IMG/VR virus record: IMGVR_UViG_3300046163_000031
Coordinates: 1,639 to 65,638 of that record
Reading direction: 5' to 3' (one strand)
Source of the DNA: a virus
Taxonomy: Duplodnaviria > Caudoviricetes
DNA length: 64,000 nt
This document shows, piece by piece, positions 17,383 to 34,900 of the stretch (its first letter is position 1; each line of letters opens with the position of its first letter). Position numbers and translations under genes: made by a program. The notes beneath the pieces are model-generated. The model made no database searches and had not been told where the DNA came from. It saw only the letters and a list, made by a program, of their open reading frames with translations.

Positions 17383-17976
17383 ATGGTTTATATATGTACT
17401 AATAGCATCCACATGCATAGTCTTAAAAATAATGGAAATAAATGGAGTAAGATGGATAATATAAAACTAGAAAAAATATTTAAAGAAAATAAAAATGATA
17501 TTCAAAGATTTATAAACTCAAAAGTTTATGATACGCATTTAGCTAAAGACTTATCACAAGATACTTTTATTAAATTAATAAAAACTTTAAGAAAAGAAAA
17601 CTATAATGAAGAGGGTAAATTTTTATCTTATGCTTTTGCAGTAGCTCATAACGTTGTTAGAGATTACTACAGAAAAAAGAAACCAGTAATGATTAGATCA
17701 GATAACTTTAAAGTTTTTTCTACATTAGAAAGCAAACAATTAAATAAAGAAGAAGAGATAATTAAAAATCAAATAATAGATTTAGTTAAAGATTGTATTG
17801 AAGAACTTCCTTCTAATTTAAAAAAAGTTGTTAAGTTAAGAATATATAGTAAATTAACTTTTAGACAAATAGCTGAACAAACTAATTCTAGTACAAATAC
17901 AGTTTTAGGTAGATTCAGATATGGATTAAATCATTTAAAAAACTCACACAGATTAAAACAAATAACAGATAGATAA
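17383..17976 (+). CDS. ECF-type sigma-70 factor, Bacteroidota-like (start probably near 17451)
   Basis: Region 2 DLSQDTFIK..YNEEGKF..AHN..DYYRK; region 4 LP..LTFRQIAEQT..STNTVLGRFRYGL. Confidence 0.88.
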   Translation: MVYICTNSIHMHSLKNNGNKWSKMDNIKLEKIFKENKNDIQRFINSKVYDTHLAKDLSQDTFIKLIKTLRKENYNEEGKFLSYAFAVAHNVVRDYYRKKKPVMIRSDNFKVFSTLESKQLNKEEEIIKNQIIDLVKDCIEELPSNLKKVVKLRIYSKLTFRQIAEQTNSSTNTVLGRFRYGLNHLKNSHRLKQITDR

Positions 17977-18309: not shown

Positions 18310-18810
18310 ATGAATATATTTTATTTAGATTCTGACCCTGTAAAAGCTGCGAAGGTACAATACAATAAGCATGTGGTTAAAATGATCTTAGAATCAGCCC
18401 AGATGCTTTGTACTGCGCATCATCATTATGGTTCCGGTGATAATGTTCCTTATAAAAAAGCACATTACAACCACCCATCAACTATATGGTGTAGACAAAA
18501 CAGTAAACAATACTATTGGTTGTTTCATCATATGTTAGCGTTAGGAGCAGAGTATACTAAAAGATACGGCAAAAAACATATGTCAATAGACAAATGCTTT
18601 GGTCCGTTATCTTTTTTACCTCCTAATATACCTACAGATCAAGAATTTACAGAGCCTCCACAGTGTATGCCTGATCAATACAAAGTTCCAGGTTGTAGTA
18701 TTACAGCTTATTGGAATTATTATGAACAAGAAAAGCACATAGTTGCTGCAAAAGACGAACAATTAATATTTAGACCAGATGAGAAGAAAATTATACAAAC
18801 ATTTAGTTGA
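18310..18810 (+). CDS. Pyrimidine-dimer DNA glycosylase (DenV/endonuclease V-like family)
   Basis: MNIFYLD, KHVVKMILESAQML, HYNHPSTIW, PPQCMPD motifs. Confidence 0.75.
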   Translation: MNIFYLDSDPVKAAKVQYNKHVVKMILESAQMLCTAHHHYGSGDNVPYKKAHYNHPSTIWCRQNSKQYYWLFHHMLALGAEYTKRYGKKHMSIDKCFGPLSFLPPNIPTDQEFTEPPQCMPDQYKVPGCSITAYWNYYEQEKHIVAAKDEQLIFRPDEKKIIQTFS

Positions 18811-18879
18811 TACAGACGTTTTCAACACCAGAACAAAAATTAAAAATTTTACAAAATCAAATAAACCAAAAAAAAAGGC

Positions 18880-18922
18880 TGACAAAAGCCTATTATAATA
18901 TAATAATAAAAAGCTAATGTCA
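18880..18922. promoter_or_regulatory. Inverted binding-site pair, copy 3, overlapping the ATG of the HTH gene
   Basis: TGACAAAAG-N25-CTAATGTCA. Confidence 0.65.
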
Positions 18923-19540
18923 TTATTAGAACGTAATACAAAGTATTTAATAAGCAAGCAAGTAATATGGCGTCAAAACCCATGGAGCGACATACCTACA
19001 AAAAATTATGAGTGGGGTTGGTATTATGAAAATGGTACACATCAATGTTATTCTTTATTTGCATCTAAAGCTAAAATAAATACATTTAAATCTTTAAAAT
19101 GGCACATGTATGTTTTATGGTACTTAAACCCTCAATTAAATCCAAGTGACTTTGAAATGATAGTTAAACATATTTGTGATATCAAAAAAGGTTTTATTAC
19201 GTTTAAAGTTTCTAACCATATAAGACAAAGCATGATATTAGATGTTAGTTTACAAGACTTAGAAAGACCACCACCAAATAGATTACGTAAAGTAATTTTT
19301 AGAGATTTTTGCGGATTAAACAGATCACAAAAAATGTCTATTGTTGGTCAACTTGTAGGAAGATCTAAAAAAATCAATGCTGATGACGTATATCAATGCA
19401 TGATAGATTTAAATGATCTTGGTGAAAAAATAACGTGGTCTAAGATTTCGAAGTCTTTAGATTGCTCAGAAAGAACAATAATTAGAAATATAAATAATGA
19501 ACTTAAAAAAGAAAAAATACTACTTAACAAACAATTATGA
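18917..19540 (+). CDS. DNA-binding protein with C-terminal HTH (possible replication initiator)
   Basis: KITWSKISKSLDCSERTIIRNI helix-turn-helix. Confidence 0.6.
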   Translation: MSLLERNTKYLISKQVIWRQNPWSDIPTKNYEWGWYYENGTHQCYSLFASKAKINTFKSLKWHMYVLWYLNPQLNPSDFEMIVKHICDIKKGFITFKVSNHIRQSMILDVSLQDLERPPPNRLRKVIFRDFCGLNRSQKMSIVGQLVGRSKKINADDVYQCMIDLNDLGEKITWSKISKSLDCSERTIIRNINNELKKEKILLNKQL

Positions 19541-20301
19541 AAAAATATAATATAAGCAACTACGTAAGGTATAAAGAAGATATAAAAAAATCAATGCCTG
19601 TAGAAAAATTTTATGATTACTATACTAGAGATGAAATGGTTATTAAGTTTTTACCATTAGTAGAAAATATGGCTAGAAAATTTGCAACAAGTCAACAAGC
19701 ATCTGGGGTATTGAGTATACTAGATCTACTTCAAGTTGGAGGTGAGGCATTAACTAAAGCTGTTGATAAACTTGATTGGGAATTATTAGTTGATTCAGAA
19801 GATATTGAAAAAACATTAAAATCGTTTTTTTCTAAAAGAATAAAAGGTGCTATTAGAAGACGAATTGATATGATGAGAGGAGATATGAGAATACCAGAGT
19901 ATAAATTAAACGAAATAAGATCTAACCCAAAAGATAAAAAAATGGTAGCTATGTTTTTTAACTCTATGTTTTTAAGTATAGACGCTAATTTTTCAACAAG
20001 TGATGATGAAGAAAACATAATGCATCAGATACAAGATAAGTCTGAACCTTATAATATACAGTTATTAAATTTATATTTAATAGGTTTAATGAAAACACAT
20101 TTAACTGAAGGTTCTAAAGAATATGATACACTTAGATTAAGCTATGGTTTAGACTGTGAAAAACATACAGCAAAAGAAATAGCAGCTTTATTAAATATAG
20201 AAGGTGTTAGTGATTATGTTCGTGTATCTGAAATAAAAAAACAAGCTGTACAGAAATTAATAGACAGCGTTGATCACTCGCAAGTGATTGATTATCTGTA
20301 G
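19537..20301 (+). CDS. Phage sigma-70-family factor
   Basis: FLPLVENMARK, DLLQVG..ALTKAVDK, RIKGAIRR, MRIP, and region-4 LRLSYGL..TAKEIA..RVSEIKKQAVQKL. Confidence 0.85.
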   Translation: MKKYNISNYVRYKEDIKKSMPVEKFYDYYTRDEMVIKFLPLVENMARKFATSQQASGVLSILDLLQVGGEALTKAVDKLDWELLVDSEDIEKTLKSFFSKRIKGAIRRRIDMMRGDMRIPEYKLNEIRSNPKDKKMVAMFFNSMFLSIDANFSTSDDEENIMHQIQDKSEPYNIQLLNLYLIGLMKTHLTEGSKEYDTLRLSYGLDCEKHTAKEIAALLNIEGVSDYVRVSEIKKQAVQKLIDSVDHSQVIDYL

Positions 20302-20311
20302 TTTAAAACAA

Positions 20312-20342
20312 CACGGAATAAAATAAAATCGTAAATGATAAT
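20312..20342 (+). promoter_or_regulatory. Phage promoter motif copy 8
   Basis: CACGGAA-N18-GATAAT. Confidence 0.75.
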
Positions 20343-20385
20343 AATAACATGTAATAATAATAATAAGCAATTTAAATAAGAACGA

Positions 20386-20949
20386 ATGAACATAAACGAA
20401 AAATTAGCGACAATCCAAACAAAGTTTAAATCGAAAAAAAGTAGATTTAATTCTTTCGGCAAGTACAACTTCAGATCAGCCGAAGACATTCTCGAAGCAA
20501 CAAAACCCTTTCTATTAGAATTAGGAGTTACAGTAACAATCAACGAAAGACTTGATGAAGTAGTAGGTTTACCTATTATGACATCAACAGCTACCATTAC
20601 AGATGGTGAGTCTTTAATAGAAGCTACGTCTGTAGTTGGTGTAGACTTAAATCAAAAAGGCATGAACACACCTCAGCAATTTGGCTCAGCATCTTCGTAT
20701 GCTAAGAAATATGCGTTAGGTAATTTATTCTTAATTGATGACACTGCTGATAGTGACGCAACAAATAATCACGGTAAAGCATCTGTTAAAAAACAACCTA
20801 AAAATACTTTAACATCAACTAAAGATCCTGCGTATAAAAAAGCAATAGACTATATTAAGTCAGGTGGCAAAATAGAAACCATCAAAGGTAAATATAATAT
20901 TTCTAAAGAAATAGAAGATGAATTAGTATTAACAGCAAACACATTATAA
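20386..20949 (+). CDS. erf: ERF-family ssDNA annealing protein
   Basis: YNFRSAEDIL, QFGSASSYAKKYALGNLFLIDD..DSD. Confidence 0.9.
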   Translation: MNINEKLATIQTKFKSKKSRFNSFGKYNFRSAEDILEATKPFLLELGVTVTINERLDEVVGLPIMTSTATITDGESLIEATSVVGVDLNQKGMNTPQQFGSASSYAKKYALGNLFLIDDTADSDATNNHGKASVKKQPKNTLTSTKDPAYKKAIDYIKSGGKIETIKGKYNISKEIEDELVLTANTL

Positions 20950-21684
20950 ATGAAAAACAACAAAGCGGCTTTAAAAAAGCTAGAAGATGATAAACATTAC
21001 TATGGTGATTTTGGTAAACAATATTTAAGCAATTCAGACATAGGTAAGTTATTAACAAACCCTCTAAGTCTTAGAGACGAGCAAAAACAAATACCAGCTT
21101 TTTTAGTTGGTGGTTATTTTCACACAGCTATATTAGAGCCTGATAAACTTAAAAAGTTTAAAATAATAGAGGCGAGTACTAGAAACACTAAAGTATACAA
21201 AGAAATATCTGGAGGTGAAATGTGTTTGTTACAGTCAGAAGTAGATCAATTAGAGTTAATGATAGACAAAATGATGAGTAATCAAGCTTGTGTAGATTTA
21301 ATTAGAGGTATTAATGTAGACTATGAAGTTCCTGGTATAACTGAGCTTGAAGGTCAATTATGGAAGGGTAAAGCAGATATTGTAAACCATGACGAAAAGC
21401 TTATTATTGATTTAAAGACAACAGCTGATTTACAGAAATTTAGATATTCAGCTTCTAAATATAATTACGATAGTCAAGCTTACATTTATCAAAAATTATT
21501 TGGCTATGAATTAATATTTATAGCTATAGACAAGGCTAATCACCAAATAGGTATATTTGATTGCTCGCCTGAATTTTTAGCTCGAGGAGCTGATAAAGTA
21601 CAAAGAGCAGTAGAACAATACAAATTATTTTATGAATCAGAGGATTTTGATCCTCAACAATATTTTATTAATCAAACATTATAA
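20950..21684 (+). CDS. PD-(D/E)XK exonuclease (DUF3799/RecE-like)
   Basis: LSNS, FHTAILEP, KGKADI, IIDLKTT, YDSQAYIY. Confidence 0.85.
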   Translation: MKNNKAALKKLEDDKHYYGDFGKQYLSNSDIGKLLTNPLSLRDEQKQIPAFLVGGYFHTAILEPDKLKKFKIIEASTRNTKVYKEISGGEMCLLQSEVDQLELMIDKMMSNQACVDLIRGINVDYEVPGITELEGQLWKGKADIVNHDEKLIIDLKTTADLQKFRYSASKYNYDSQAYIYQKLFGYELIFIAIDKANHQIGIFDCSPEFLARGADKVQRAVEQYKLFYESEDFDPQQYFINQTL

Positions 21685-21686
21685 TT

Positions 21687-21995
21687 ATGGCAAGTATTAT
21701 TAAAGCAAGTATCAATTTAAATGAAGTACCAAAAGATAAGATAATCATTGGTAAAAAAGGTAAATACCTACCTATAACTATTACATTAAACGACGAGCTA
21801 GATCAGTTTGGAAACCAAGGTCCTGTTATTGTAGATCAGTCTAAAGAAGAGCGAGAAGCTAAAACACAAAAGACTTATTTAGGAAATGTAAAAGTGGTAT
21901 GGACTAATGGTGAAAATGTAGCAGCGGCTCCACGTGATGGTCAACATCAACAAGCTGCGCCTGTTAAAACAGTTGATGATGATTTACCGTTTTAA
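21687..21995 (+). CDS. Single-stranded DNA-binding protein
   Basis: Acidic DDDLPF tail; follows ERF and exonuclease. Confidence 0.75.
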   Translation: MASIIKASINLNEVPKDKIIIGKKGKYLPITITLNDELDQFGNQGPVIVDQSKEEREAKTQKTYLGNVKVVWTNGENVAAAPRDGQHQQAAPVKTVDDDLPF

Positions 21996-22010
21996 TATGC
22001 GGTAACAAAG

Positions 22011-22047
22011 TAACTATGCTATACACACCTGCGTGTGTATGCATATA
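22011..22047 (+). repeat. 37-bp hairpin-containing intergenic repeat, copy 2
   Basis: TAACTATGCT-ATACACAC-CTGC-GTGTGTAT-GCATATA. Confidence 0.85.
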
Positions 22048-22069
22048 ATATTAATTCTAATTAAATTAA

Positions 22070-23788
22070 ATGCAGACAACAGAGATCAATGGATTTTTGA
22101 TTGACGAATTCAATCAACATAAGCTTGAAGAGGGAAAAAAGCAAGGTACATGCCCGCTTTGTTCTCACGATAGAAAACCCAAGAATCAAAAGGCTAAATG
22201 TGCGTCTTATGATTGGGAACGGGGTCTCGGTACTTGTCACAACTGTAATACATCATTTCAATTACATACTTATCAGCGTAAAGGCGCTAGTGAAAAAGAA
22301 TATGTTAGACCAACGCTACAAGTTAATGTTGATCAGCCTGAGTTTTTAAGTGATAAAGTAATTGATTGGTTTAAAACAAGAGGCATAGGAACTCAAACCC
22401 TTTTTGATTTAGAGATCAGCGAAGGTGATGAGTATATGCCACAAACCGGTAAGTCCGAGAACACAATAAAGTTCAATTATTTCATGGGCGATCAACTTAT
22501 TAACGTTAAGTATCGCGATGGTAGAAAGAACTTTAAATTATATAAGGGTGCTGAAAAAGTATTTTATAATATAAATAGTATAGTAGGTTATGACACTTGT
22601 GTTATAACAGAAGGTGAAATGGATGTGTTAGCTTTTCACGAAGCTGGTATACCAAATGCTATATCAGTTCCTAACGGAGCTACATTAAATAGCAATAACC
22701 TTGATTACTTAGATAATTGTATAGATTACTTTGAAGATAAAGAAAAAATAATATTAGCAGTTGACTCAGATGAAGCAGGTCAAGCATTACAATCAGAATT
22801 AGTCCGTAGACTTGGAGCTGAAGTTTGTTACCTAGCGTCATTTGATGATTGTAAAGACGCTAATGAATATCTACAAAAATATGGCAAAGAAAAATTACAA
22901 GAGCGTATTACAAAAGCAAGACCAGTACCACTTGAAAACGTTACAACATTTAAAGATATTGAAGACGAGGTCACGGATTTTGTGCGCAATGGTTTTAAGA
23001 AAGGATATCAAATTGGCTTGGAAAACTTTGATGATATTTTTTCTACATATACCGGGCAGTTTATTACTGTTACTGGGATACCTAGTAGTGGTAAGTCTGA
23101 TTTTGTTGACCAGATGGTTGTAGGTTACAATCGTAACTATGGTTGGAAAACAGCATTTGCATCACCAGAGAATGCACCGACCTATTTACACGCTCACAAA
23201 TTGATGCGTAAAACATGGGAAGGCATGCCAACAGCTGCTGATATACATACTGATAAATGGAATAAAATAGCCGATCATTGCAATGCTAATTACTTTCATA
23301 TTGATATGGAGCGTTATACATTAGAATCCGTTTTACGTAAAGGAGCTGAATTAGTTAAACGTAAAGGTATTAAATGCTTAGTTATAGATCCATTTAATAA
23401 AATAAGAGATGTTGATTCTAAAACAGAAGACATTAATCGTTACACAATGGAGTACTTAACTAAGATTGAAGTTTTTGCTAAAAAGTTTGATGTATTAGTA
23501 TTTGTAGTTGCTCACCCAACTAAAATGTATAAAGATAAAGATGGTAAAATGGAAGAACCTACTATGTATAACATAAAAGGTGGTGGCGAATGGTATGATG
23601 CTAGTTATCACGGTATATTAGTTCACAGAAACTATGAAGAAAAAACCGTTAAAGCAAAAATACTAAAAGTTAAGTTTCAAAACCTAGGAGAAAACGGCGC
23701 TGAGTGTCATTTTAAATGGGAACACAAGTCTGGTTGTTTTATTCCTCATGAACCTATATCAAATAATGAACCTATGCCATGGGAGTAA
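22070..23788 (+). CDS. Primase-helicase (T7 gp4/Twinkle-like)
   Basis: CPLC...CHNC zinc finger, TOPRIM EGEMD/DSDEAG/KDANE, Walker A GIPSSGKS, VIDP, VAHP. Confidence 0.95.
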   Translation: MQTTEINGFLIDEFNQHKLEEGKKQGTCPLCSHDRKPKNQKAKCASYDWERGLGTCHNCNTSFQLHTYQRKGASEKEYVRPTLQVNVDQPEFLSDKVIDWFKTRGIGTQTLFDLEISEGDEYMPQTGKSENTIKFNYFMGDQLINVKYRDGRKNFKLYKGAEKVFYNINSIVGYDTCVITEGEMDVLAFHEAGIPNAISVPNGATLNSNNLDYLDNCIDYFEDKEKIILAVDSDEAGQALQSELVRRLGAEVCYLASFDDCKDANEYLQKYGKEKLQERITKARPVPLENVTTFKDIEDEVTDFVRNGFKKGYQIGLENFDDIFSTYTGQFITVTGIPSSGKSDFVDQMVVGYNRNYGWKTAFASPENAPTYLHAHKLMRKTWEGMPTAADIHTDKWNKIADHCNANYFHIDMERYTLESVLRKGAELVKRKGIKCLVIDPFNKIRDVDSKTEDINRYTMEYLTKIEVFAKKFDVLVFVVAHPTKMYKDKDGKMEEPTMYNIKGGGEWYDASYHGILVHRNYEEKTVKAKILKVKFQNLGENGAECHFKWEHKSGCFIPHEPISNNEPMPWE

Positions 23789-24030
23789 AAAAGAAATCAG
23801 TAGGATACCAATTTAATCCTGATGAGTTCAAGGCATATCACTGGTGTATAAACAATGGAATTTATATATCACCGTTTTGTAAAGAAAACTTTACATTTTG
23901 GCATATAGACATAGAAATAAATAAAAAAATAAATAGATCACCACAGGTTTTTAATCCAAGAGAACTATGGGAAACAATATTTAAATATTATAAATATTAT
24001 TATGACAAGTATAACAAAAACAAAATTTAA
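23779..24030 (+). CDS. Hypothetical protein
   Basis: Overlapping ORF in operon. Confidence 0.65.
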   Translation: MGVKKKSVGYQFNPDEFKAYHWCINNGIYISPFCKENFTFWHIDIEINKKINRSPQVFNPRELWETIFKYYKYYYDKYNKNKI

Positions 24031-24655
24031 AAATGCTAATGAGGCTTATGAATATCTTTTAGACGCTGCTATAGTTAAAGGTGTTAAATTTGATGACACT
24101 GTTGCTATGTTTAATATAGGTTTTTATATTGAAGATCCTCAAGACAATCACATAACAAATAAACAACGAAAATGGAGCTTAGAATATGCAGAGGCAGAAT
24201 GGCAATGGTATTTATCTGGTGATCCTAATATTAAAAAGCTTGGTGAATTATATGGTAAAATACCACCTATATGGGAGCGAATGGCTGATAAGTATGGTAA
24301 TGTTAATTCAAACTATGGTTATCAATGGAAACGTAAAGCTCAGATAGATTATGTTTGCAATAAACTTAAAGAAAACAATAATACTAGACATGCAGCTATA
24401 AGTATATATGATGCAAAAGAATACGATAAATATAGTAAAGACACACCGTGTACATATGCTGTTCAATTTACAATCATAAATAAACAATTATGTATGTCTG
24501 TTTATATGCGTTCTAATGACATCTGGTACGGTTTCTGTAATGATCAATATCAATTTTCATCATTACAAAAAATGATTGCAGACAGACTGTCTATTGACAC
24601 AGGTTGGTATTATCACCACGCACATAACATGCATTTGTATAACAATAAACTTTAA
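24002..24655 (+). CDS. Thymidylate-synthase-fold enzyme of the dCMP (hydroxy)methylase type (T4 gp42-like)
   Basis: PPIW...GNVNSNYG, DTPCT, MRSNDIWYGFCND with Asp at the nucleotide-specificity position, MHLY. Confidence 0.8.
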   Translation: MTSITKTKFKNANEAYEYLLDAAIVKGVKFDDTVAMFNIGFYIEDPQDNHITNKQRKWSLEYAEAEWQWYLSGDPNIKKLGELYGKIPPIWERMADKYGNVNSNYGYQWKRKAQIDYVCNKLKENNNTRHAAISIYDAKEYDKYSKDTPCTYAVQFTIINKQLCMSVYMRSNDIWYGFCNDQYQFSSLQKMIADRLSIDTGWYYHHAHNMHLYNNKL

Positions 24656-24660
24656 AAAAT

Positions 24661-25434
24661 ATGTATTATTTATATCACATACCAGGTAAAAAAATAGGAG
24701 TTACACGTAATCTTAATACTAGAGTAACCCTTATACAAGGATATAAGGAGAATGAATATGAGGTTCTTGAACAGTCAGAAGATATAGATTATATATCAGA
24801 CCGTGAAATAGAACTTCAAAAGTCTTACGGCTATAAACAAGATCTTCATAAATATAATAAATTAAAACCAATATTAAATCAAATGAAAATAAACGCAACA
24901 GAACAAACATCAACATTTGACTGCCCAGTGAATAAACTAAAAGGACGTCTTATGGATAATATAGGTATAACTTGGGAAACAACACATGGCAAATTCCATA
25001 TAGGTAGGGATCACATAAATTGGATAATGGCAAATGTAAAAACATCTATGTTTGATAATGAAAGATGCTTTATATATAATAAAGCTTTTTATGAATCTTT
25101 TTTTAATCCTGAACACACTCCTTGTTCTGATCCAGAAATATCAAGGTTTAATTTAATAAGAGATTGGGCTAAACAAAGAGGTATAGTAGATAAAGGAAAC
25201 TCACATACTCAATACGTTAAGTTAATTGAAGAAGCTGGGGAACTAGCAGAGGCTTTATTAAAAAAAGACAGAAAAGAAATATACGATGCTATTGGAGATA
25301 TGATAGTTGTTTTAACAAATTTAGCAACTTTAGAAGATATGAAAATAGAAGATTGTATTGATTATGCTTATAATGAAATAGCTAAAAGAAAAGGTAAAAT
25401 GATTAATGGAACTTTTGTAAAAAACACATTATAA
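24661..25434 (+). CDS. Fusion: N-terminal GIY-YIG-like/unknown domains plus C-terminal MazG-like NTP pyrophosphatase
   Basis: MYYLYHIPGKKIGVT; C-terminal WAKQRGI..KLIEEAGEL..DAIGD..AYNEIAKRKG. Confidence 0.75.
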   Translation: MYYLYHIPGKKIGVTRNLNTRVTLIQGYKENEYEVLEQSEDIDYISDREIELQKSYGYKQDLHKYNKLKPILNQMKINATEQTSTFDCPVNKLKGRLMDNIGITWETTHGKFHIGRDHINWIMANVKTSMFDNERCFIYNKAFYESFFNPEHTPCSDPEISRFNLIRDWAKQRGIVDKGNSHTQYVKLIEEAGELAEALLKKDRKEIYDAIGDMIVVLTNLATLEDMKIEDCIDYAYNEIAKRKGKMINGTFVKNTL

Positions 25435-25727
25435 TGAAAATAAAAACAGAAGATAAAATAGTTCAACAAGTATTAAGAAAAATGGACGAACGTAGTTTAA
25501 TAGGCCAAAAAAAATATGGTGCAACTATGATGAAAGAAATAGAAGGTAGAGAAAAAGATCTTGATACTTTTTTAATTGACGTACAAGAAGAATTAATGGA
25601 TGCTTTGTTATATATTGAAGCGGCTAGAAGATGTTTAACTGATGAAATAGAAGAATCTATGATAAATAGAATTAATGTAATCGGTCAAAACGGTAACACA
25701 GGAGAACATTATGAAAAAATTTTTTAA
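25434..25727 (+). CDS. Small all-alpha protein, probable NTP-pyrophosphatase superfamily
   Basis: RS..GQKKYG...QEELMDALLY. Confidence 0.5.
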   Translation: MKIKTEDKIVQQVLRKMDERSLIGQKKYGATMMKEIEGREKDLDTFLIDVQEELMDALLYIEAARRCLTDEIEESMINRINVIGQNGNTGEHYEKIF

Positions 25728-26169
25728 AAAGAAAAGCAGCAAAAGAGGTCCTGTAAGAGCAAAAAAAGTATTACATGATGGTATTAATTTTGCTTCTGGA
25801 TTAGAAAAATATATGTATTGCGCTTTAAAAAAAGCTAAAATAAAAAATAAATATGAAGGTGAAACATTTGTTTTGTTAGCTGGTTTTCATTTTGAAAACG
25901 AAGTATATGAAAGATGTTCAAATGGAAAAGGTGATTATAAAAATAGAGGCTGTAAAAGAATATTACCTATAAAATATACACCAGATTTTATTGGAGATGA
26001 TTTTATAATAGAAACAAAAGGAAGAGCTAATGAGTCTTTTCCAATGAGATGGAAATTATTTAAAAGACTTGTTATGAGTCAATTTCCAAATGTAACATTG
26101 TATAAACCACAAAATCAAAAAGAATGCGACGAAACAATAAGCGTAATCCTTTCGAAGAGAAAAGAATAG
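25711..26169 (+). CDS. T7 endonuclease I-like Holliday junction resolvase
   Basis: FASGLE, YTPDF, IIETKG. Confidence 0.8.
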   Translation: MKKFFKKKSSKRGPVRAKKVLHDGINFASGLEKYMYCALKKAKIKNKYEGETFVLLAGFHFENEVYERCSNGKGDYKNRGCKRILPIKYTPDFIGDDFIIETKGRANESFPMRWKLFKRLVMSQFPNVTLYKPQNQKECDETISVILSKRKE

Positions 26170-26297
26170 CAAGAAAAATGTATGCAGAGCGCCAAATTGA
26201 TAAATGGTGCAAATGGAGTTGGGAGATAAGGGGTAAAATAAAATACAGAGAATTAGTAGAACAACAAGAAAAATATAACTTTAAAATTTATGGATAA
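26124..26297 (+). CDS. 57-aa hypothetical protein (not in ORF track)
   Basis: MRRNNKRNPFEEKRIARKMYAERQIDKWCKWSWEIRG...; fills the gap. Confidence 0.45.
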   Translation: MRRNNKRNPFEEKRIARKMYAERQIDKWCKWSWEIRGKIKYRELVEQQEKYNFKIYG

Positions 26298-26439
26298 AAA
26301 AGAAAAAAGAAACTGGTCATTGTCAATAGGTACTTATCCTGGTTTATTAATTGGTGCTAGAACGTATGAAGAACCTGAACAAACAACACACGTATTATAC
26401 ATACCTTTTGTAGACATTGCGTTAGAAATATATAAATAA
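26290..26439 (+). CDS. 49-aa hypothetical protein (not in ORF track)
   Basis: MDKKEKRNWSLSIGTYPGLLIGARTY...HVLYIPFVDIALEIYK; its stop overlaps the nrdB ATG. Confidence 0.6.
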   Translation: MDKKEKRNWSLSIGTYPGLLIGARTYEEPEQTTHVLYIPFVDIALEIYK

Positions 26440-27407
26440 TGGGATTATTTGATGAGCGCATAGCGTACAAACCGTTTGAATATCCTGAATATTACACAGA
26501 AGGTTGGTTAAAACAAGCACAAGCATTTTGGTTACACACTGAAATCTCAATGCAAAGCGATATAAAAGATTGGAATGAAAAACTTAACGAAAAAGAAAAA
26601 CACCTTGTCGGGAACATACTTCTTGGCTTCGCACAAACGGAATGCGCGGTATCAGACTATTGGACCCAGAACGTCGTATCGTGGTTTCCTAAACACGAAA
26701 TAAGACAAATGGCTATGATGTTTGGATCACAAGAAACTGTGCATGCTGTAGCATATAGTTATTTAAATGAAACACTAAAACTAGAAGATTATGAAGCATT
26801 TCTTCACGAACCAGCAACGTCTGCTAGATTTGATAATTTGGTTGCTTATGACGGGAATAATCCTGTGGGTATTGCAAAAAGCTTGGCTGTATTTTCAGCC
26901 TTCGCTGAAGGAGTTAGCCTGTATAGTGCTTTTGCAGTTTTGTATAGTTTTCAGCTTCGAAATCTACTTAAGGGTATCGGGCAACAAATGAAATGGTCAG
27001 TAAGAGATGAATCATTACATAGTAAAATGGGTTGTAAACTATTTAGAGATATGTGTAAAGAAAACGATCAATTACTACATTTATGCAGAGAAGACATAGT
27101 TAATGCCGCTGAAACAATGGTAAAACTTGAAAGTAGTTATATTGACAAAATGTTTGAAGCTGGTGACATTGAGGGTATATCAGCTAATAATTTAAAACAA
27201 TTTATAAAAAAGAGAGCAAATGAAAAACTTGTGGAACTTGGTTATATCGACCTGGGATCGTATTTCGCTTATGACAAAAAAGCAGCGTCTAATCTTGATT
27301 GGTTTTACCATCTTACCGGGGGCATCACTCATACTGATTTTTTTGCTATTAGGCCAACTGATTACTCAAAAGCTAACGAAGGTGAAGACTTTGAAGATAT
27401 CTGGTAA
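26439..27407 (+). CDS. nrdB: Class I ribonucleotide reductase beta subunit
   Basis: YKPFEYP, E.VH...Y, AEG, RDESLH, C-terminal DFF..RPTDY. Confidence 0.95.
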   Translation: MGLFDERIAYKPFEYPEYYTEGWLKQAQAFWLHTEISMQSDIKDWNEKLNEKEKHLVGNILLGFAQTECAVSDYWTQNVVSWFPKHEIRQMAMMFGSQETVHAVAYSYLNETLKLEDYEAFLHEPATSARFDNLVAYDGNNPVGIAKSLAVFSAFAEGVSLYSAFAVLYSFQLRNLLKGIGQQMKWSVRDESLHSKMGCKLFRDMCKENDQLLHLCREDIVNAAETMVKLESSYIDKMFEAGDIEGISANNLKQFIKKRANEKLVELGYIDLGSYFAYDKKAASNLDWFYHLTGGITHTDFFAIRPTDYSKANEGEDFEDIW

Positions 27408-27484
27408 AATAAATATAACGGAAGAAGATATATATAAAGATCTTAACTATAATGGTATGTATAAATTTGTAAAAAAAAAATAAA

Positions 27485-28069
27485 ATGATTTATATAAAAG
27501 ATGATTTTTTACCTCACAATTTATTAAACGCTATATTAAAAGATAAAGAAAAATATAAAGAACATAAAACTCCTGGTAAATCTTTTTGGGTAAAAGAACC
27601 TAGCTTAATGTTTATTGATTATATAAGTAATAGAATATCAGAAATAGAAGGTTACAAAATAAACAATATACTTTGTTTTTTTAGAGAAGCAAAAAAAGGT
27701 CAAGACGATAAATGGAGAATACATAACGATACTATTATTCAAAATCAAAAACCAGAAAGAGCAATAGTTTTATTTTTGTCTGAAGATAGTTATCAAGGTT
27801 TAAATGGAACTGCATTTTGGTCACATAATGTTCATGGAGATACATACACAGATGGCTCAGTAGATGATTTTAACGATCTTTTAATTAATGATAGCAATGA
27901 TATATCTAAATGGAATTTAAAAACAATTATAGGCCATAAAAAAAATAGACTTATTTCTTATCCGTGTAATTATTTTCACAGCAAGTATCCAAATGAGTTT
28001 AAAAACAGTAGACAAGTAATGGTAATGTTTTATAATAAAAATAAAAATGAAATCACAAAAACAAAGTAA
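27485..28069 (+). CDS. 2OG-Fe(II) oxygenase-like protein (DUF6445-like)
   Basis: DDFL start, IHND, GTAFW, NRLISY, FHS, R..MVMF. Confidence 0.7.
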   Translation: MIYIKDDFLPHNLLNAILKDKEKYKEHKTPGKSFWVKEPSLMFIDYISNRISEIEGYKINNILCFFREAKKGQDDKWRIHNDTIIQNQKPERAIVLFLSEDSYQGLNGTAFWSHNVHGDTYTDGSVDDFNDLLINDSNDISKWNLKTIIGHKKNRLISYPCNYFHSKYPNEFKNSRQVMVMFYNKNKNEITKTK

Positions 28070-28292
28070 AATAAATTTAATACAAAAAAAACTTGAAGCT
28101 CAAAACAGAGTTTTAGAGCACATTTTAAAAGAGTTAACTAATGTTACAGATTTAGCTATAGGAACTTTAGAAACTTTAAAAATCATGGACAAAAAAGGTT
28201 ATGAGAAAGCAATTGAAACGATTAAACAGAATATTATTAAAGAATCTAGTAAGACAGAAAAGACTAAGTCCTTGGAAAAGACTAGCGACTAG
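28047..28292 (+). CDS. Hypothetical helical protein
   Basis: ORF in operon. Confidence 0.55.
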   Translation: MKSQKQSKINLIQKKLEAQNRVLEHILKELTNVTDLAIGTLETLKIMDKKGYEKAIETIKQNIIKESSKTEKTKSLEKTSD

Positions 28293-28467
28293 AGCTGGGT
28301 ACATGGGTGCTGGTTTTTTAATAGCAGCACAATGGACTTTAGAGCCAAGACTATATATACTTGGTTTTATTTGTGTAATGATACAAACAGCTTCAAGAAA
28401 ACAATGGAATTTAGTAGCTTTAAATTTAAACGGTTTAATAGCTTGGACAAAACATTTTATAGGATAA
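28201..28467 (+). CDS. Small 3-TM membrane protein (PnuC half-like)
   Basis: Three hydrophobic segments. Confidence 0.5.
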   Translation: MRKQLKRLNRILLKNLVRQKRLSPWKRLATRAGYMGAGFLIAAQWTLEPRLYILGFICVMIQTASRKQWNLVALNLNGLIAWTKHFIG

Positions 28468-28471
28468 AAAT

Positions 28472-30190
28472 ATGTGGAATAATGAATGGATTAAAGGAGA
28501 AGATTACCCAAAATGGGGAGATACAGAAGTTTATAAAAAAACAATATCTGGTGGATATTTACTACAAGGCGAAACTCCTCGTGATGCTTACTTGCGTGTA
28601 TCTAAAACTGTTGCTAGAAGATTATACAAACCAGAAATGGCTGAAAAATTTTTTGAATACATCTGGAATGGCTGGCTTTGCCTTGCTAGTCCGGTTCTTA
28701 GTAATACTGGTACTGACCGCGGTCTTCCTATATCATGCTTTGGTATTGATGTGGCAGATAGCATACAGGATATAGGACAGAAAAATCTAGAGATGATGCT
28801 ACTCGCTAAGCATGGCGGTGGAGTTGGTATCGGTATAAATCAAATAAGACCCGCCGGCGCTAAAATAACAGGTAATGGAACAAGTGATGGAGTTGTGCCG
28901 TTTTGTAAAATATACGACTCAACTATACTTGCCACTAATCAAGGATCTGTCAGACGAGGAGCAGCATCGGTTAATATTAATATTGATCATGCCGATTTCG
29001 AAGAGTGGCTTGAAATACGTGAACCCAAAGGAGACATCAATCGTCAATCGCTCAACTTGCACCAATGTGCTATTGTCGGCGATAAATTTATGCGAAGACT
29101 TGAAGCTGGAGATAAACAAGCAAGAAAACGTTGGGGAAAACTTCTTCAAAAACGTAAAGCTACTGGAGAACCTTATATCCTATTTAAAGGGAATACAAAT
29201 AAAAATAACCCCAAAGCGTACAAAGACAATGGTCTAAAAGTGCACATGACAAACATATGCTCAGAGATTACGTTACACACTGATGAAAACCACAGTTTTG
29301 TATGTTGTTTATCATCATTAAATCTAGCAAAATATGAAGAGTGGAAAGGTACAAACCTTATTTACGACAGTATATGGTTCCTTGATGGAGTCATGGAAGA
29401 GTTTATACAACGAGCTAAAGGCTTACGAGGCTTTGAAAACGCGGTTAGGTCAGCTACGAAAGGAAGAGCGCTTGGCTTGGGAGTTTTGGGCTGGCACACG
29501 TACTTACAAGAAAAAGGTATATCGTTCGAAGGTTTACTTGCTCAGTTTGAAACTAGGAAAATATTTAGTCAAATTAAAATTGAAAGTGAAAGGGCTAGTA
29601 TGGCACTTGCAGAAACTTATGGAGAACCTTTGTGGTGTTCTGGAACTGGCATGCGTAATACTCATTTACGCGCTGTGGCTCCCACTGTTTCTAATAGCAA
29701 GCTTAGTGGCAATGTTTCGCCGGGTATAGAGCCTTGGGCTGCAAATGTATTTACAGAGCAGACAGCTAAAGGAACCTTTATACGTAAGAACCCTACTTTA
29801 TTAAAACTATTAAGAAAACTTAAAATAAATAACAATGAAACGTGGGATAAGATCATGGCTGACGGTGGTAGTGTGCAAAATATTATTGAGCTTGATGATG
29901 TTGTGTTGGCACACGAAACACCCGCAAAGGAGGTATTTAAAACTTTTAAGGAGATTAATCAATTAGAATTAGTTAATCAAGCTGGACTAAGACAGCAATA
30001 TGTAGATCAGTCGGTTAGTTTAAACTTAGCTTTTCCTAGTGTAGCAACACCAAAGTGGATTAATAAAGTTCATTTTGATGCTTGGAAAAAAGGTATTAAA
30101 ACGTTGTATTACACTAGAACAGAATCTGTTTTAAGAGGTGATATTGCACAGCAAGCAATGAGTGAAGATTGTTTAGCTTGTGATGGTTAA
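28472..30190 (+). CDS. nrdA: Class I ribonucleotide reductase alpha subunit, compact, no ATP cone
   Basis: ASPVLSN, PISCF, GGGVG, RRGA, TNICSEI, CCLSS, APT, KTLYY, C-terminal CLACDG. Confidence 0.95.
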   Translation: MWNNEWIKGEDYPKWGDTEVYKKTISGGYLLQGETPRDAYLRVSKTVARRLYKPEMAEKFFEYIWNGWLCLASPVLSNTGTDRGLPISCFGIDVADSIQDIGQKNLEMMLLAKHGGGVGIGINQIRPAGAKITGNGTSDGVVPFCKIYDSTILATNQGSVRRGAASVNINIDHADFEEWLEIREPKGDINRQSLNLHQCAIVGDKFMRRLEAGDKQARKRWGKLLQKRKATGEPYILFKGNTNKNNPKAYKDNGLKVHMTNICSEITLHTDENHSFVCCLSSLNLAKYEEWKGTNLIYDSIWFLDGVMEEFIQRAKGLRGFENAVRSATKGRALGLGVLGWHTYLQEKGISFEGLLAQFETRKIFSQIKIESERASMALAETYGEPLWCSGTGMRNTHLRAVAPTVSNSKLSGNVSPGIEPWAANVFTEQTAKGTFIRKNPTLLKLLRKLKINNNETWDKIMADGGSVQNIIELDDVVLAHETPAKEVFKTFKEINQLELVNQAGLRQQYVDQSVSLNLAFPSVATPKWINKVHFDAWKKGIKTLYYTRTESVLRGDIAQQAMSEDCLACDG

Positions 30191-30217
30191 AAAGTTATAA
30201 CTATTAGTTATTGTAAT

Positions 30218-30254
30218 AAAAAAAGGGCTCTCGTAATGAGGGCCCTTCTTTTTT
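30218..30254. terminator. Bidirectional intrinsic terminator at the convergent strand switch
   Basis: A-run, AAGGGCTCTC-GTAAT-GAGGGCCCTT, then CTTTTTT. Confidence 0.85.
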
Positions 30255-30299
30255 AGGAACTTTAGGTATGGTACGCCTATTTTATTTTGTTCCTTGTTT

Positions 30300-30659
30300 T
30301 TATCTAAGAAAATTGTCAATTTCTTTTACAATACCTTTTTTGCCAATATTTTTAGCTAGAAATTTACCCATATTATAAAGACTTTTAGCTCCTCCTCCTA
30401 GTATTAATCCTAAACTACCTGAGCTTCCTAATCTTTGCTCCATCATCTCTTTAGGAATATCTTTTAATAAACCTTGCTTATGTTGTTCTTCCGGTGTAAT
30501 AGGAACACTTTCGTTATTCATTCTATTTCTAGTTAATTCAATTTCAGCTAATCTTTCATTTGTGCTGTTATCAGATACAAGATTAGATACTTTGTTTAAA
30601 ATACCATTGCTTTCATCAACCGGGCCTGTTCTTCTTGTTATTAATTCTTCGTCTTCCAT
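30300..30659 (-). CDS. Hypothetical protein
   Basis: 119-aa ORF. Confidence 0.65.
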   Translation of the reverse strand: MEDEELITRRTGPVDESNGILNKVSNLVSDNSTNERLAEIELTRNRMNNESVPITPEEQHKQGLLKDIPKEMMEQRLGSSGSLGLILGGGAKSLYNMGKFLAKNIGKKGIVKEIDNFLR

Positions 30660-31988: not shown

Positions 31989-34900
31989 TTAAAATTCTAT
32001 TTTATCAAACTTTAATGAATCACCAAAATTTATTGTGTCAAAATTAAGGCCATCACTAGATTTTTTGTTATTGCCATCTTCTATACCTAAGTTCCATTTA
32101 CTATAACCAGCTAGCATAGCTAGTCTTTGCCAAGTTTCGTATTGAGTATTCATAGCGTCTTTTAGGTTTTCTGATTTTATATATAATCTATCTAAAGGTA
32201 AATTTATAGCCGCCGAGGTAATAGATGCTCCTGCTTGAAGATAATATTTGTTATCTAAACTCCAACCTAAATATTCTGCCTCTTGTTTATTGTATTGAAT
32301 AGATTCCCAGCCTTTCATTAATTTTCTTGCTTTTATACCAACCGGAGGTGAAACGTTTAAAGCTTCAACAAGTAGTTTTCCACTTTTATATCTACCTTTA
32401 GGATCAGCGTTTAATTCTATAGCTTTAGATACAACATTTTTAACTGCTGCAACAAATGCTCCTTTTAAACCAGAACCTCTAAGAAGAGTATCCATAGCTC
32501 CATTTACAGCTCTATACTTACCTGTATCATATTTTCCTTTCTCATCTGCATACTCATCATCATCTAGCCACATTCCAAACAACGCATTTTGTAAAAAGTT
32601 AAACACCATGTTTTGCAAAGCAGCATAATAAGTTATTTTAGCTATATTATTTCTCCAGTCACCTCTTCCTTTTGCTAAATCAACAACTGAATTTTTTATT
32701 ATTCTTCCATATTGAAGCGGCGTGTTTTGAAAAGCCAAAATTAATCTACCTTGTATTGAGGCTTGAGTTTGAGATATTTTAGAAGGATCAGCAGATTGTT
32801 GACTTATTTCAGCTGCTTCGTAAAATTCTCTCATTGCTTGTGATTCAGCAGCGTCAATTTCTACACCTTGTTTAACTAAAGATTTTATTCTATTTCTATA
32901 AAAACTAGAACCACCAAGTGCTATTGCAAAACTATCAGCAAATCTAGTAGGCATAAAACCTTTCTTTAAAACCCAAGCTATAGCAGCTTTTGTTTTACCT
33001 GCAAATGTTTTGTTTCTAGGATCATTAACAACATCAATAAGTTCTGCTTCTTGAATATCACTAAGCATTCCTTCTCTTCTATTTGACAAGTAAGCTGATT
33101 TCCAAAGGGTAGTAAAATCACTCCAAAACTGTTTTTGATTAATAAAAGTTTTAGCAGCTGCAAACACATTGTTATCTGTAGTATTTATAAAGTTAGTTGC
33201 AGAGATTGTTTGTAATAAAGCAGATCTCATATTAAAGAACATTGTAACACCAACAGATCCATTTAACCAATTAACAAAAGCGCTCTGTTCTTTTGGTTTG
33301 TTTTTACCAGTTTGCATTCTTTTTGTAATATCTTTAAGAGCTGTAACAAAATCCGCACCTAAAGCAGCTTCTAGTTTATATAAGTTTTCTTTATCAAATA
33401 TTAATTCCTTGTTTTGAATCCATCTTGATAAAAACTTTTCTCTATTAGAAAAATTAAGTATATCTTGTATATCACTTAATACATTTCCTGAACTCCAACC
33501 TTTACTTGGTTCTATCCAGTTATTTTTCATTTTAGATATTTTTTCAAGATCTAGCGCGAAGCTTTTTAGTTTTGAGTTTTTTCTAATTATGTTACTTAAA
33601 AACATTATATCTTTACTATCTAAACCTGGTATTTCAATTCTATTTCTTTTCCAAAGATAAACTCTTAAAGCAGTGTCTAATGAAAAACCACTGTACCCAG
33701 AATCTTCTGCTAATAGTTTTTTTATTCCTTTGTTTTTCTTTAATAGGTTTTTAAAATCTCTATGTGCAACATTTTTAGCTTCAACCATATTCAACATACC
33801 CTCAGAATAAGGTTTTATTAAGTTATCGTTTAACCATTTTAATTGTTTTTCTCCTTTTTTACCTTTACCAGAGGCTATCATATACATAAGACCTAAAAAA
33901 TCTGAATCACCAGGTGGAAGCCACACGTTATTACCCCCAACAAGTTTACCTAAAATTCTACCTCTTTCTTCAGAAAAAACCTCGTCTACATTTATATTGT
34001 AGTTTTCTTCAATTATTTCATTTAACCCTTTTGAAAGGTTATTACTGTATTCGTTTCTTTCGTTATTTAAACTAAATTTAATATCACCTGTTTCTATAAC
34101 ATTTCTAGACATTTTACCTTTCCAATTAGCGTTGTTTTTAAAGTAAAAATCATTATAACCTTGAGATATTTTATCTATTAAATAATAAGAAATAGCTTTG
34201 TCATTCATGTTACCTAAATCAGGAACATTAAATTTAATAGCTTTTTTATTAAACTTTATAGTTTTTCTAGTTGCATCATCTATAGTTTCAGCCATAAACA
34301 ATTGATCATTAACATCAGCTGTAGAAGATAAGTAATCAGATCCTTTAGCGTTATTCAAAGAGCCGTTATCTAAAGTAAATCTTTCTCTAAATTCTTTGTT
34401 AGAGTTTCTTTTTATATCTTTTATAGACTGCTTAAACTGCTTGTTTGTTAAAGTAAATTCATCAAAAACAATTCCTTGTTCATTTGCTTCATTAACTTCG
34501 TAATTAAATCTTGATCTAAACATGTTAGCTAATCTTCCATACAATCTAGTTCTAGACTTAGCTTCAGAATCAAAAGTTATATTTTTTATATTAAACTTAT
34601 TTACAGCTTCTAATAATCCATTAGCTACAATACTCATTACTTTAAAAGAATCACCAGTTCCTGATATTTCTGTTGATGGTATTGTTCCTGTAATAGTTTC
34701 TCCAAACCTATCAAAAGTTACATCTTTCATTAACGCAAATTGAAACTCATAATTGTCTTTTCCTTTAGGCATTAAGTTAAGTAAATAAGTTTTACCGTTA
34801 ACAACAAAAGAAGCGTTATACATTTGATCTGAGTTTGGATCTCCAGGTATCATACTACTATCAGACCATTTTAAATCTGCTTTAGTATTTAAACTAAATT

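Follow-up and report, generated by a model that had tools for sequence, protein, structure and literature searches.

Can a phage modify the cytosine of its DNA with a 217-aa homologue of thymidylate synthase (TS) and hardly any other pathway gene? This question is raised by a locus in the IMG/VR virus record IMGVR_UViG_3300046163_000031, of which bases 1639–65638, a stretch of 64,000 nucleotides, were analysed (the window). The whole record is 65,638 bp long and was rated 100% complete by CheckV; its first 1638 bases, outside the window, contain only small open reading frames (ORFs). The initial annotation of this DNA proposed a cytosine-modification module composed of a TS homologue acting on deoxycytidine monophosphate (dCMP) and two NTP pyrophosphatases. 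Our analysis indicated that the TS homologue is probably a minimal T4-type deoxycytidylate 5-hydroxymethylase in a cytosine-modification module that would give 5-hydroxymethylcytosine (5hmC) DNA. The gp42-type enzyme, the MazG domain and the minimal pathway of the proposed module were retained, and its second pyrophosphatase was not supported. The genes of the locus are as follows:

23779..24030, + strand, p83, a small conserved ORF whose last 29 nt overlap the TS homologue; left edge of a swappable slot
24002..24655, + strand, short TS-fold enzyme of 217 aa, predicted dCMP 5-hydroxymethylase (5hm-dCMP synthase)
24661..24858, + strand, MazG257 residues 1–66, small alpha/beta domain (strand-strand-helix-strand-helix)
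24883..25110, + strand, MazG257 residues 75–150, middle alpha/beta domain
25138..25434, + strand, MazG257 residues 160–257, all-alpha MazG-type NTP pyrophosphohydrolase domain
25434–25727, + strand, p97, a conserved helical protein of 97 aa whose start overlaps the MazG257 stop codon

ORF 24002–24655 (reading ...YMRSNDIWYGFCND...) has the TS fold (PF00303, E = 8e-27). Its closest solved structures were the CMP hydroxymethylase MilA (E = 1.5e-16) and T4 gp42 (7e-16), with ordinary TS slightly behind. The 13-residue motif MRSNDIWYGFCND was located at 24506–24544. Alignments to the solved structures and a MAFFT alignment with E. coli ThyA placed D181 (24542–24544) at the position of Asn177 of E. 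coli ThyA, exactly where it had been annotated. MilA and T4 gp42 also have Asp at this position, and the motif of T4 gp42, which the initial annotation had given correctly, reads mrsndvvfgfrnd. The segments PPIW...GNVNSNYG (residues 88–106) and DTPCT (147–151) had been assigned to the gp42 pattern, and both indeed follow T4 gp42 (IW...GEINSNYG; SDFMCT) and not ThyA (GPVYG; LAPCH). S103-N-Y105 within NSNYG is identical to the Ser-x-Tyr motif of T4.

The key residues of the TS homologue, with those of E. coli ThyA in brackets, are E66 (E58), W91 (W80), S103-x-Y105 (V93/Y94), R129 (R126), D147 (L143), C150 (C146), T151 (H147), D173 (D169) and D181 (N177), and further R170, S171, H211 and Y213. 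A signature was compiled from 15 active-site positions (E. coli 58, 80, 94, 126, 127, 143, 146, 147, 166, 167, 168, 169, 177, 207 and 209):

Query, EWYRHDCTRSNDDHY
T4 gp42, EWYRRDCTRSNDDHY
E. coli ThyA, EWYRRLCHRSCDNHY
RB69 gp48, EVYRRECTRSQNDHF
ViI-like dUMP hydroxymethylase, EAYRQDCNRSQDNHY

The query agrees with T4 gp42 at 14 of the 15 positions. These features support its assignment as a predicted TS homologue of the dCMP type that follows the gp42 pattern.

Across a family set of 189 sequences, consisting of 69 distinct ORFs from related loci and 120 database matches, the active site hardly varies. D181, D147, C150, T151 and Y105 were present in 189/189, D173 in 188/189, and S103 in more than 98%. 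With this conservation and the PF00303 match, a chance resemblance can be dismissed. An exhaustive search of 1.84 billion cluster representatives gave 7203 matches at E ≤ 0.001. The best 150 representatives were taken, of which 33 fragments were dropped and 117 of at least 190 aa were kept; Asp at all three positions 143, 169 and 177 was found in 116 of these 117, and 21 of them were equally short-tailed.

The C-terminus of the enzyme is unusually short. After Y213 of the H-x-Y motif, the tail has 4 residues in the query, 28 in T4 gp42 and 55 in E. coli ThyA, and the PF00303 match ends at profile position 214–218 of 266. This missing C-terminus, together with a GIY-YIG-like start of the next ORF, prompted the idea of a split or intron-interrupted TS gene. 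The idea was rejected: a six-frame PF00303 scan of the genome returned a single match and no C-terminal piece. The best 120 homologues are all 213–240 aa long. Since no second TS piece was found in the genome and these homologues are similarly short, the short C-terminus is not a truncation artefact.

Published residue rules connect these positions with substrate and product. In the extracts available from PMC13326640, N177D makes dCMP the substrate, a change of Leu143 to Asp or Glu goes with hydroxymethylated and not methylated products, and D169N identifies the 5-hydroxy-dCMP synthases that depend on flavin, among them those of RB69 and DLP3. Extracts from PMC6400193 assign the activation of the substrate water to Asp145 of the T4 dCMP hydroxymethylase (dCH), which precedes the catalytic Cys by three residues, and state that D145N is inactive. 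They also state that Ser94-x-Tyr96 of T4 belongs to the hydroxymethylation signature, that T4 dCH lacks the C-terminal tail that closes the TS active site for hydride transfer, and that Ala176 and Lys133 of MilA determine its preference for CMP over dCMP.

The query has all the sequence features of a T4-type dCMP hydroxymethylase, namely the TS fold with its Cys, Asp177, an Asp three residues before the Cys, Ser-x-Tyr and no tail. Ser171 and Arg129 occupy the two MilA specificity positions and are of the dCMP type, not the CMP type. At position 169, where the RB69-type synthases have Asn, the query keeps the ordinary Asp (D173). The ThyA residues Asn177, Leu143 and His147 were Asp, Asp and Thr in the query, and its best score against the ThyA equivalog models of NCBIfam was 75 bits, with cut-offs of 327 and higher. 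The combination expected of a dCMP methylase, Asp177 with Leu143 and an intact tail, was also absent, the query having Asp143 and no tail. The initial annotation had left three products side by side (5-methyl, 5-hydroxymethyl or 5-hydroxy); the residue rules select 5-hydroxymethyl, and the other two fail them.

The next ORF, 24661–25434 (MazG257, + strand), begins 6 nt past the TS stop codon. This gap and the overlapping start and stop codons of the following genes form a tight gene string, which we count in favour of a module. The AF2 model of MazG257 contains three domains, with a mean predicted local distance difference test score (pLDDT) of 85.6. The C-terminal domain confirmed the annotated MazG-like domain: it matched PF03819 at 30 bits (cut-off 22), PF01503 at 23.9 bits (cut-off 21.3) and the PHROG MazG families at E = 1e-31, and its fold aligned to 1vmg with a VIA-align Z of 9.7 (root-mean-square deviation 2.3 over 81 residues). 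The acidic residues E190, E191, E194, D209 and D213 are invariant in 29 sequences. Fold searches were run with the whole MazG257 model, and their matches were taken up by the MazG domain.

Two further domains that precede the MazG domain had been missed. Residues 1–66 form a block of pLDDT 83–93 with sub-cut-off Pfam matches to MUG113 (E = 0.064) and T5orf172 (E = 0.11). Neighbouring protein clusters (Atlas) carry T5orf172 in 11–48% of their members, and the secondary structure is compatible; hhalign found no match of these residues to T4 SegF or SegA. This domain is possibly T5orf172/GIY-YIG-like. Residues 75–150 are conserved in 29 sequences (pLDDT 77–91) and gave no family match.

The MazG fold says nothing about the substrate. 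The substrate of MazG257 likewise cannot be read from its similarities, because the MazG domain is of a generic phage type and has no real similarity to T4 gp56. We propose that the domain may act as a dCTPase. Mammalian DCTPP1 has the same fold (mouse dCTPase 6sqw, Foldseek TMt 0.59), and this enzyme is reported to prefer 5-modified dCTP, the opposite of what the proposed pathway would need. The same fold is also found in MazZ of cyanophage S-2L (7ody, Z 9.3), and the sequence identity of the MazG257 domain to MazZ and DCTPP1 is 16–18%. According to the part of PMC8342488 available, MazZ sets a precedent, being a MazG-type enzyme whose monophosphate product enters a pathway of base replacement. 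Extracts from PMC8670742 report that, in metaviromes including those of coastal seawater, a TS domain with Asp177 and an altered residue 147 is the domain most associated with cytosine-modified contigs, and that it co-occurs with PRA-PH/MazG-type domains in these contigs. These independent findings agree with a cytosine-modification module.

The initial annotation also read p97, an all-alpha EExxD protein, as an NTP pyrophosphatase. The ORF is real and its AF2 model is all-helical with two long helices (pLDDT 66), but profile and fold searches found no such kinship. An hhalign comparison with the MazG257 alignment gave a probability of 0.6%, and the reading of p97 as an NTP pyrophosphatase is not supported. 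A sequence search of the PDB found nothing credible, and Foldseek of the model found no match. Pfam searches with 29 members gave scattered weak matches only, and Atlas gave viral hypothetical proteins only. Genome scans with PF04447 found no match, and those with PF12643 matched the MazG257 domain and not p97. The invariant residues of p97 are R20, S21, G24, K27, Y28, G29, E35, Q51, E52, E53, D56 and Y60. An extra p97-family ORF of 70–90 aa was observed just upstream of a ThyA(D177)-type gene in three divergent related loci (L148:5464–5679, L157:6954–7166 and L158:6948–7220), and the L157 copy aligned with p97 at an hhalign probability of 98.7%. The p97 family therefore flanks the slot described below on either side.

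Loci from related phages were compared in two sets. In 80 loci selected by their TS gene, MazG257 directly follows TS in 80/80, p97 was present in 76/80 and p83 in 60/80 (tblastn). Being defined by the TS gene, this set is circular. An independent set was therefore chosen by the upstream primase/helicase; it comprised 80 loci of 74–99% identity, 75 of which had at least 2.2 kb of downstream DNA. MazG257 and p97 were present in 75/75. The position between p83 and MazG257 held the short TS homologue in 49 loci and a ThyA(D177)-like gene in 26, and it was empty in none.

The ThyA-like alleles sit exactly between p83 and MazG257, in the same slot as the short enzyme, and a p83 equivalent of 81–92 aa precedes the gene in all 26 loci. 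Their proteins are 270–315 aa long, 39–47% identical to E. coli ThyA and have the full C-terminal tail. They keep Arg21, Glu58, Trp80, Tyr94, Arg126/127, Leu143, Cys146, His147, Arg166, Ser167, Asp169, His207 and Tyr209, with Asp at 177. One of them (L152) is split over two ORFs. The 25 intact alleles are distinct, being 65–99% identical to each other and 22–25% identical to the query, and all have L143, H147 and D177. The residue combination of a dCMP methylase is thus present in 25 intact sibling alleles and one split allele. Extracts from PMC8670742 quote 1992 studies in which the N177D (E. coli) and N229D (L. casei) mutants of canonical TS produce 5-methyl-dCMP. Because of these mutants and the N177D and Leu143 rules, the ThyA-like slot alleles are predicted to be dCMP methylases giving 5-methylcytosine. 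They pass the curated TS threshold TIGR03284 with 275–287 bits (cut-off 108) and would therefore be mis-annotated. Their nearest cultured relatives are ordinary actinophage ThyA proteins of about 46% identity.

The two slot types alternate within the lineage. Mapped on a FastTree phylogeny of the primase/helicase, they call for a minimum of 9 changes, and well-supported branches force 7 of these. With shuffled slot labels the mean was 21.8 changes, and none of 500 shuffles was as low as the observed value. The DNA of the paired loci L122 and L121 is 93.7% identical over 6.9 kb upstream and 91.4% identical downstream; the similarity is lost where the TS-like gene begins and returns where MazG257 begins. 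Breakpoints at gene boundaries were also found in L139/L133 and L108/L107. The simplest account is that the interval between p83 and MazG257 is a swappable slot that always carries a predicted dCMP-directed C5 enzyme and has been exchanged repeatedly. The case for a cytosine-modification module is stronger because predicted dCMP methylases occupy the same slot and are invariably accompanied by the same MazG gene, and the use of dCMP by both alternative enzymes would fit a shared partner that converts dCTP to dCMP.

Two of the loci, L120 and L152, come from one IMG/VR contig of 129,537 bp (18510–30228 and 80779–92485), which has about twice the genome length and contains two copies of the replication block. 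One copy has a short hydroxymethylase-type gene and the other the split ThyA(D177)-type gene. Two co-occurring strains were probably concatenated, or joined into a chimera, in the assembly of this contig.

No other gene of a base-replacement pathway was detected. Six-frame scans of the 65.6-kb genome with hidden Markov models (HMMs) gave no match to Pol A, Pol B, the thymidylate-kinase family or the T4 glucosyltransferase, and Pfam and PHROG scans of the genome ORFs found no polymerase, dNMP kinase or transferase family. Among the window ORFs of at least 50 codons, no Walker-A kinase was found, and the only Walker-A motif in a plausible enzyme was that of the helicase. The absence of a dNMP kinase, glycosyltransferase and polymerase, annotated for the module alone, thus extends across the genome. 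Since none of these enzymes is detectable, the pathway would depend on the host.

In the mechanism that we favour, Cys150 would attack C6 of dCMP, which is selected by Asp181, and the one-carbon unit would come from methylene-tetrahydrofolate. A water activated by Asp147 and positioned by Ser103 and Tyr105 would then hydrate the exocyclic methylene to give 5-hydroxymethyl-dCMP. Transfer of a hydride to give a methyl group is unlikely, there being no C-terminal tail to seal the site. MazG257 would most likely convert dCTP to dCMP and pyrophosphate, the role of gp56 in T4, and would thereby feed the enzyme and deplete the competing canonical nucleotide. Because the phage encodes neither kinase nor polymerase, incorporation of 5hm-dCMP into phage DNA would fall to kinases and the replicative polymerase of the host. 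The expected outcome, at whatever degree of replacement is reached, is 5hmC DNA that resists restriction, which would be the biological purpose of the module.

Several results weigh against this reading. The dNMP kinase that T4 needs (gp1) is missing from the phage, and TS homologues expressed alone in E. coli gave only a trace of modified base in the available extracts of PMC13326640. Without a phage kinase, and with only a trace product in E. coli, replacement may be incomplete, or may not occur at all, unless 5hm-dCMP is a substrate for a host kinase. Some palindromes fell below the Markov expectation (GGCGCC 0 vs 5.5, GGTACC 2 vs 12.1, GAATTC 4 vs 12.6, GATATC 7 vs 17.8), and GATC was slightly above it (211 vs 173). 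Low counts of some C-containing 6-mers are unexpected for a fully protected genome; they were not significant over the 42 words. Small MazG proteins from temperate phages of Firmicutes, among them phages of Paenibacillus and Staphylococcus, share about 50% identity with the MazG domain, and these phages are not known to have modified DNA. Against T4 gp56, a single comparison of the domain yielded only a 20-residue match at E = 0.006, which carries no weight. MazG257 does not co-vary with the type of slot enzyme; it is present throughout the lineage, and co-occurrence is for this reason no evidence of functional coupling. Finally, a phylogeny was proposed as a check on the enzyme class. It placed the query in a weakly supported, mostly short-form group that includes a Bacteroides phage homologue, and not beside T4 gp42; T4 gp42 and RB69 gp48 fell in another group on long branches. 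This was a quick maximum-likelihood tree of 53 rows with long branches and 25 of 50 forks open, the careful tree search being unfinished. It used the first 45 of the 117 representatives of at least 190 aa and left out 72 further representatives of that size, 33 under 190 aa and P0168, which is without the catalytic Cys. Since the query and T4 gp42 do not come out as neighbours in this tree, the enzyme assignment rests on the active-site signature and not on orthology.

Most of these points would also fit a phage that makes 5hm-dCMP and puts little or none of it, or only part, into its DNA, with MazG257 serving general house-cleaning or pool balancing and not a dedicated module. The missing kinase, polymerase and transferase, the trace product in E. 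coli, a MazG domain like those of many phages without a TS homologue and unchanged between short-type and ThyA-type siblings, and the mild shortage of palindromes all agree with it. We nevertheless consider it unlikely, since the slot is never empty (0/75) and always holds a dCMP-type Asp177 enzyme. Repeated replacement of the enzyme is hard to explain unless its product matters, most simply in DNA, and the active site is strongly conserved over the 189 sequences. A further possibility is that 5hmC is only an intermediate, to which unrecognised phage proteins (p97, the two N-terminal domains of MazG257 or other ORFs without a family) or host enzymes add a glycosyl, carbamoyl or other group, or that such proteins supply the missing kinase step. 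Known phages usually decorate 5hmC further (extracts of PMC13326640 and PMC8670742), and p97 and the N-terminal and middle domains of MazG257 are conserved, linked to the slot and without an assigned function, and in three loci a paralogue of p97 lies beyond the opposite edge of the slot. This appears improbable to us: searches of the genome revealed neither a transferase fold nor a transferase family, and the same p97 and MazG257 are also present beside the predicted methylase, whose product would offer no hydroxyl for decoration.

The two remaining alternatives concern the chemistry of the enzyme itself. A dCMP methylase giving 5-methylcytosine DNA, as in Xanthomonas phage Xp12, would share the Asp at 177, and the N177D mutants of canonical TS cited above show that this residue can go with 5-methyl-dCMP. 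We regard this as very unlikely for the query, which has Asp and not Leu at 143, contains Ser-x-Tyr and lacks the sealing tail; in the siblings, moreover, the methylase role would be filled by the distinct ThyA-like allele with Leu143, His147 and full tail. An RB69-type flavin-dependent 5-hydroxy-dCMP synthase or a dUMP-directed enzyme (TS or dUMP hydroxymethylase) would have the TS fold too; RB69 gp48 also has N177D with an acidic residue 143 (extracts of PMC13326640), and dUMP hydroxymethylases also have Asp143. The diagnostic D169N is nonetheless absent, the Asn177 needed by dUMP enzymes is Asp in 189/189, and the ThyA equivalog score is far below its cut-offs, which leaves this the least credible of the alternatives, with hardly any weight.

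The assignment of the query as a T4-type hydroxymethylase may be part of a wider scheme, which we put forward tentatively and hold with less than even confidence. In it, the lineage would exchange a one-slot cytosine cartridge by gene-for-gene recombination and so switch between a 5hmC genome and a 5-methylcytosine genome. The T5orf172-like/MazG fusion and p97 would stay fixed and replace the separate kinase, dCTPase and exclusion functions of T4. The exchange would be driven by modification-dependent and classical restriction in the host, and base replacement would run on host polymerase and kinases alone. If true, this would show that full base replacement can proceed with these host enzymes alone.

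Cytosine replacement by a TS homologue and a dCTPase is textbook T4 biology, and the proposed mechanism is the T4 gp42/gp56 strategy, known in kind. T4 gp42 (PDB 1b49/1b5e, 6a9a, 6l18; accompanied by the gp56 dCTPase/dUTPase) and the query have in common the TS fold, the Asp three residues before the Cys, Ser-x-Tyr, Asp169 and Asp177, as well as the lack of the TS C-terminal tail, and both genomes contain an NTP pyrophosphatase gene. The query is only about 27% identical to T4 gp42 and does not come out as its sister in the tree; it is shorter still, and R127 is replaced by His. The accompanying pyrophosphatase, a fusion with a MazG domain, shows no detectable similarity to gp56, and the genome has no detectable gp1-type kinase, glucosyltransferase or polymerase of its own. 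The differences from T4 are therefore the shorter enzyme, the unrelated MazG fusion, the lack of kinase, transferase and polymerase, and the population-level, gene-for-gene alternation with a ThyA-derived predicted methylase. Our literature search found no description of this lineage, of such allele alternation, or of flavobacterial or marine phages with such an enzyme.

The closest homologue in a cultured phage is the short TS homologue of Bacteroides phage BF486P2 (OP172667) and its relatives, annotated as deoxycytidylate 5-hydroxymethyltransferase. This 226-aa protein is 44% identical over 99% of the length, shares the GFCND motif and has the same 15-position signature as T4 gp42; its host belongs to Bacteroidota, like the probable host of the window phage. 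BF486P2 differs from the window in that another TS homologue and a dUTPase lie close by, and in that no MazG is annotated beside the gene. Its TS homologues lie at 19770–20531 and 22603–23283 (locus L002) with the dUTPase gene between them; both have Asp143 and Asp177, and one is without the Glu58 equivalent. The literature search found nothing on the DNA chemistry of BF486P2 or other Bacteroides phages in the searchable papers, which did not include its collection paper. Enterococcus phage VPE25 (LT615366: 31028–33386, locus L084) was observed to carry a TS homologue with the full T4-type signature beside a dUTPase-like gene and an annotated beta-glucosyltransferase. This suggests glucosylated hydroxymethylcytosine DNA in the VPE25 group of Enterococcus phages.

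The N177D (E. coli) and N229D (L. casei) dCMP methylases resemble the alternative allele found in 26/75 siblings, and the window gene differs from them by Asp143, Thr151 and the missing tail. In extracts of PMC8670742 and PMC13326640, the Xp12 enzyme is given as a natural dCMP methylase, a link taken from the literature. The 5-hydroxy-dCMP synthases RB69 gp48 and DLP3 gp80 share N177D and the acidic residue 143 with the window enzyme and likewise lie at a conserved genomic slot where phages make differing cytosine derivatives (extracts of PMC13326640). They have D169N and bind flavin, whereas the window enzyme keeps Asp169.

The phage group is very common, with homologues in the thousands. Fourteen DNA runs of marine, seawater or virome origin contained near-identical DNA (at least 0.85 of sampled words), and the stretch was present in 20 runs (DNA and RNA) from 14 studies, all data being contigs. 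Two metatranscriptome runs of one study (X15, X16) contained near-identical contigs over the TS gene; DNA carry-over is possible, so these are not proof of transcription. The phage presents a minimal toolkit in which cytosine is apparently modified with a 217-aa enzyme and a MazG fusion, without its own kinase, polymerase or transferase. Sibling genomes that differ in whether this slot encodes a predicted hydroxymethylase or methylase offer a natural experiment on the type of modification against restriction and modification-dependent defence. If modified, such DNA would give anomalous results in methylation assays of the enzymatic or bisulfite type, and also when marine viromes are base-called from nanopore reads.

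The G+C content of the window is about 31%, and megablast of 22000–28000 gave no nucleotide match to known phages. The large terminase had 89 matching records. The top match (62%) was an uncultured spring-water phage, and the nearest cultured matches, at about 45%, were phages of Flavobacterium, Cellulophaga, Tenacibaculum and Maribacter. From these affinities the host is probably a member of Flavobacteriia. The structural, packaging and lysis genes lie on the − strand. The + strand block of about 13.9–30.2 kb holds the early, replication and nucleotide-metabolism genes, including the following:

Within about 13.9–30.2 kb, + strand, Erf annealing protein and PDDEXK exonuclease
22070–23788, + strand, primase/helicase
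25711..26169, + strand, DUF1064/resolvase-like nuclease (PF06356, E = 2.9e-8; phrog_190 Holliday junction resolvase, E = 7.6e-12)
26439–27407, + strand, ribonucleotide reductase small subunit (PF00268, E = 8e-57)
28472–30190, + strand, ribonucleotide reductase large subunit (PF02867, E = 9e-92)
30223..30247, + strand, terminator-like hairpin of 11 pairs, 6 of them G-C, followed by a T run; ends the replication/nucleotide-metabolism block

Upstream of the TS homologue, p83 has no Pfam family and matched phrog_5945 (E = 1e-4), a family without an assigned function. The start of the DUF1064 nuclease overlaps the end of p97, and the gene was found in 75/80 TS-selected loci; it belongs to the same gene string, and nothing supports a modification role for it. 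The role of the ribonucleotide reductase is dNDP supply. Between its two genes lies a 194-aa ORF (27485–28069, + strand) with an H-x-D...H pattern, a sub-cut-off match to DUF6445 (E = 0.0026) and a weak match to phrog_1644, which may encode a 2OG-Fe(II) oxygenase. It is accessory, occurring in 5/80 TS-selected loci and in at least one ThyA-type locus (L134). The hairpin at 30223..30247 is the strongest of four terminator-like sites in 21900–30400, where shuffled sequences gave a mean of 3.1; it is a consensus match only.

Other genes were observed outside this string. Three very large ORFs lie on the − strand at 31989–39920 (2643 aa), 44109–49274 (1721 aa) and 4848–9881 (1677 aa); their family matches are nearly nil, two of them are related to PHROG 'virion structural protein' families, and none contains a polymerase domain. 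A GroEL-like gene (2859–4415, − strand; phrog_5725, E = 2e-132) and a GroES-like gene (60287–60892, − strand; phrog_13932) were also found. A 166-aa protein at 18310–18810 (+ strand) matched the pyrimidine-dimer DNA glycosylase family (PF03013, 25.6 bits, cut-off 23; phrog_624). Two sigma-factor-like genes in the early region (17383–17976 and 19537–20301, + strand) have Sigma70 regions 2 and 4 and match PHROG sigma families, which suggests that the phage redirects the host RNA polymerase.

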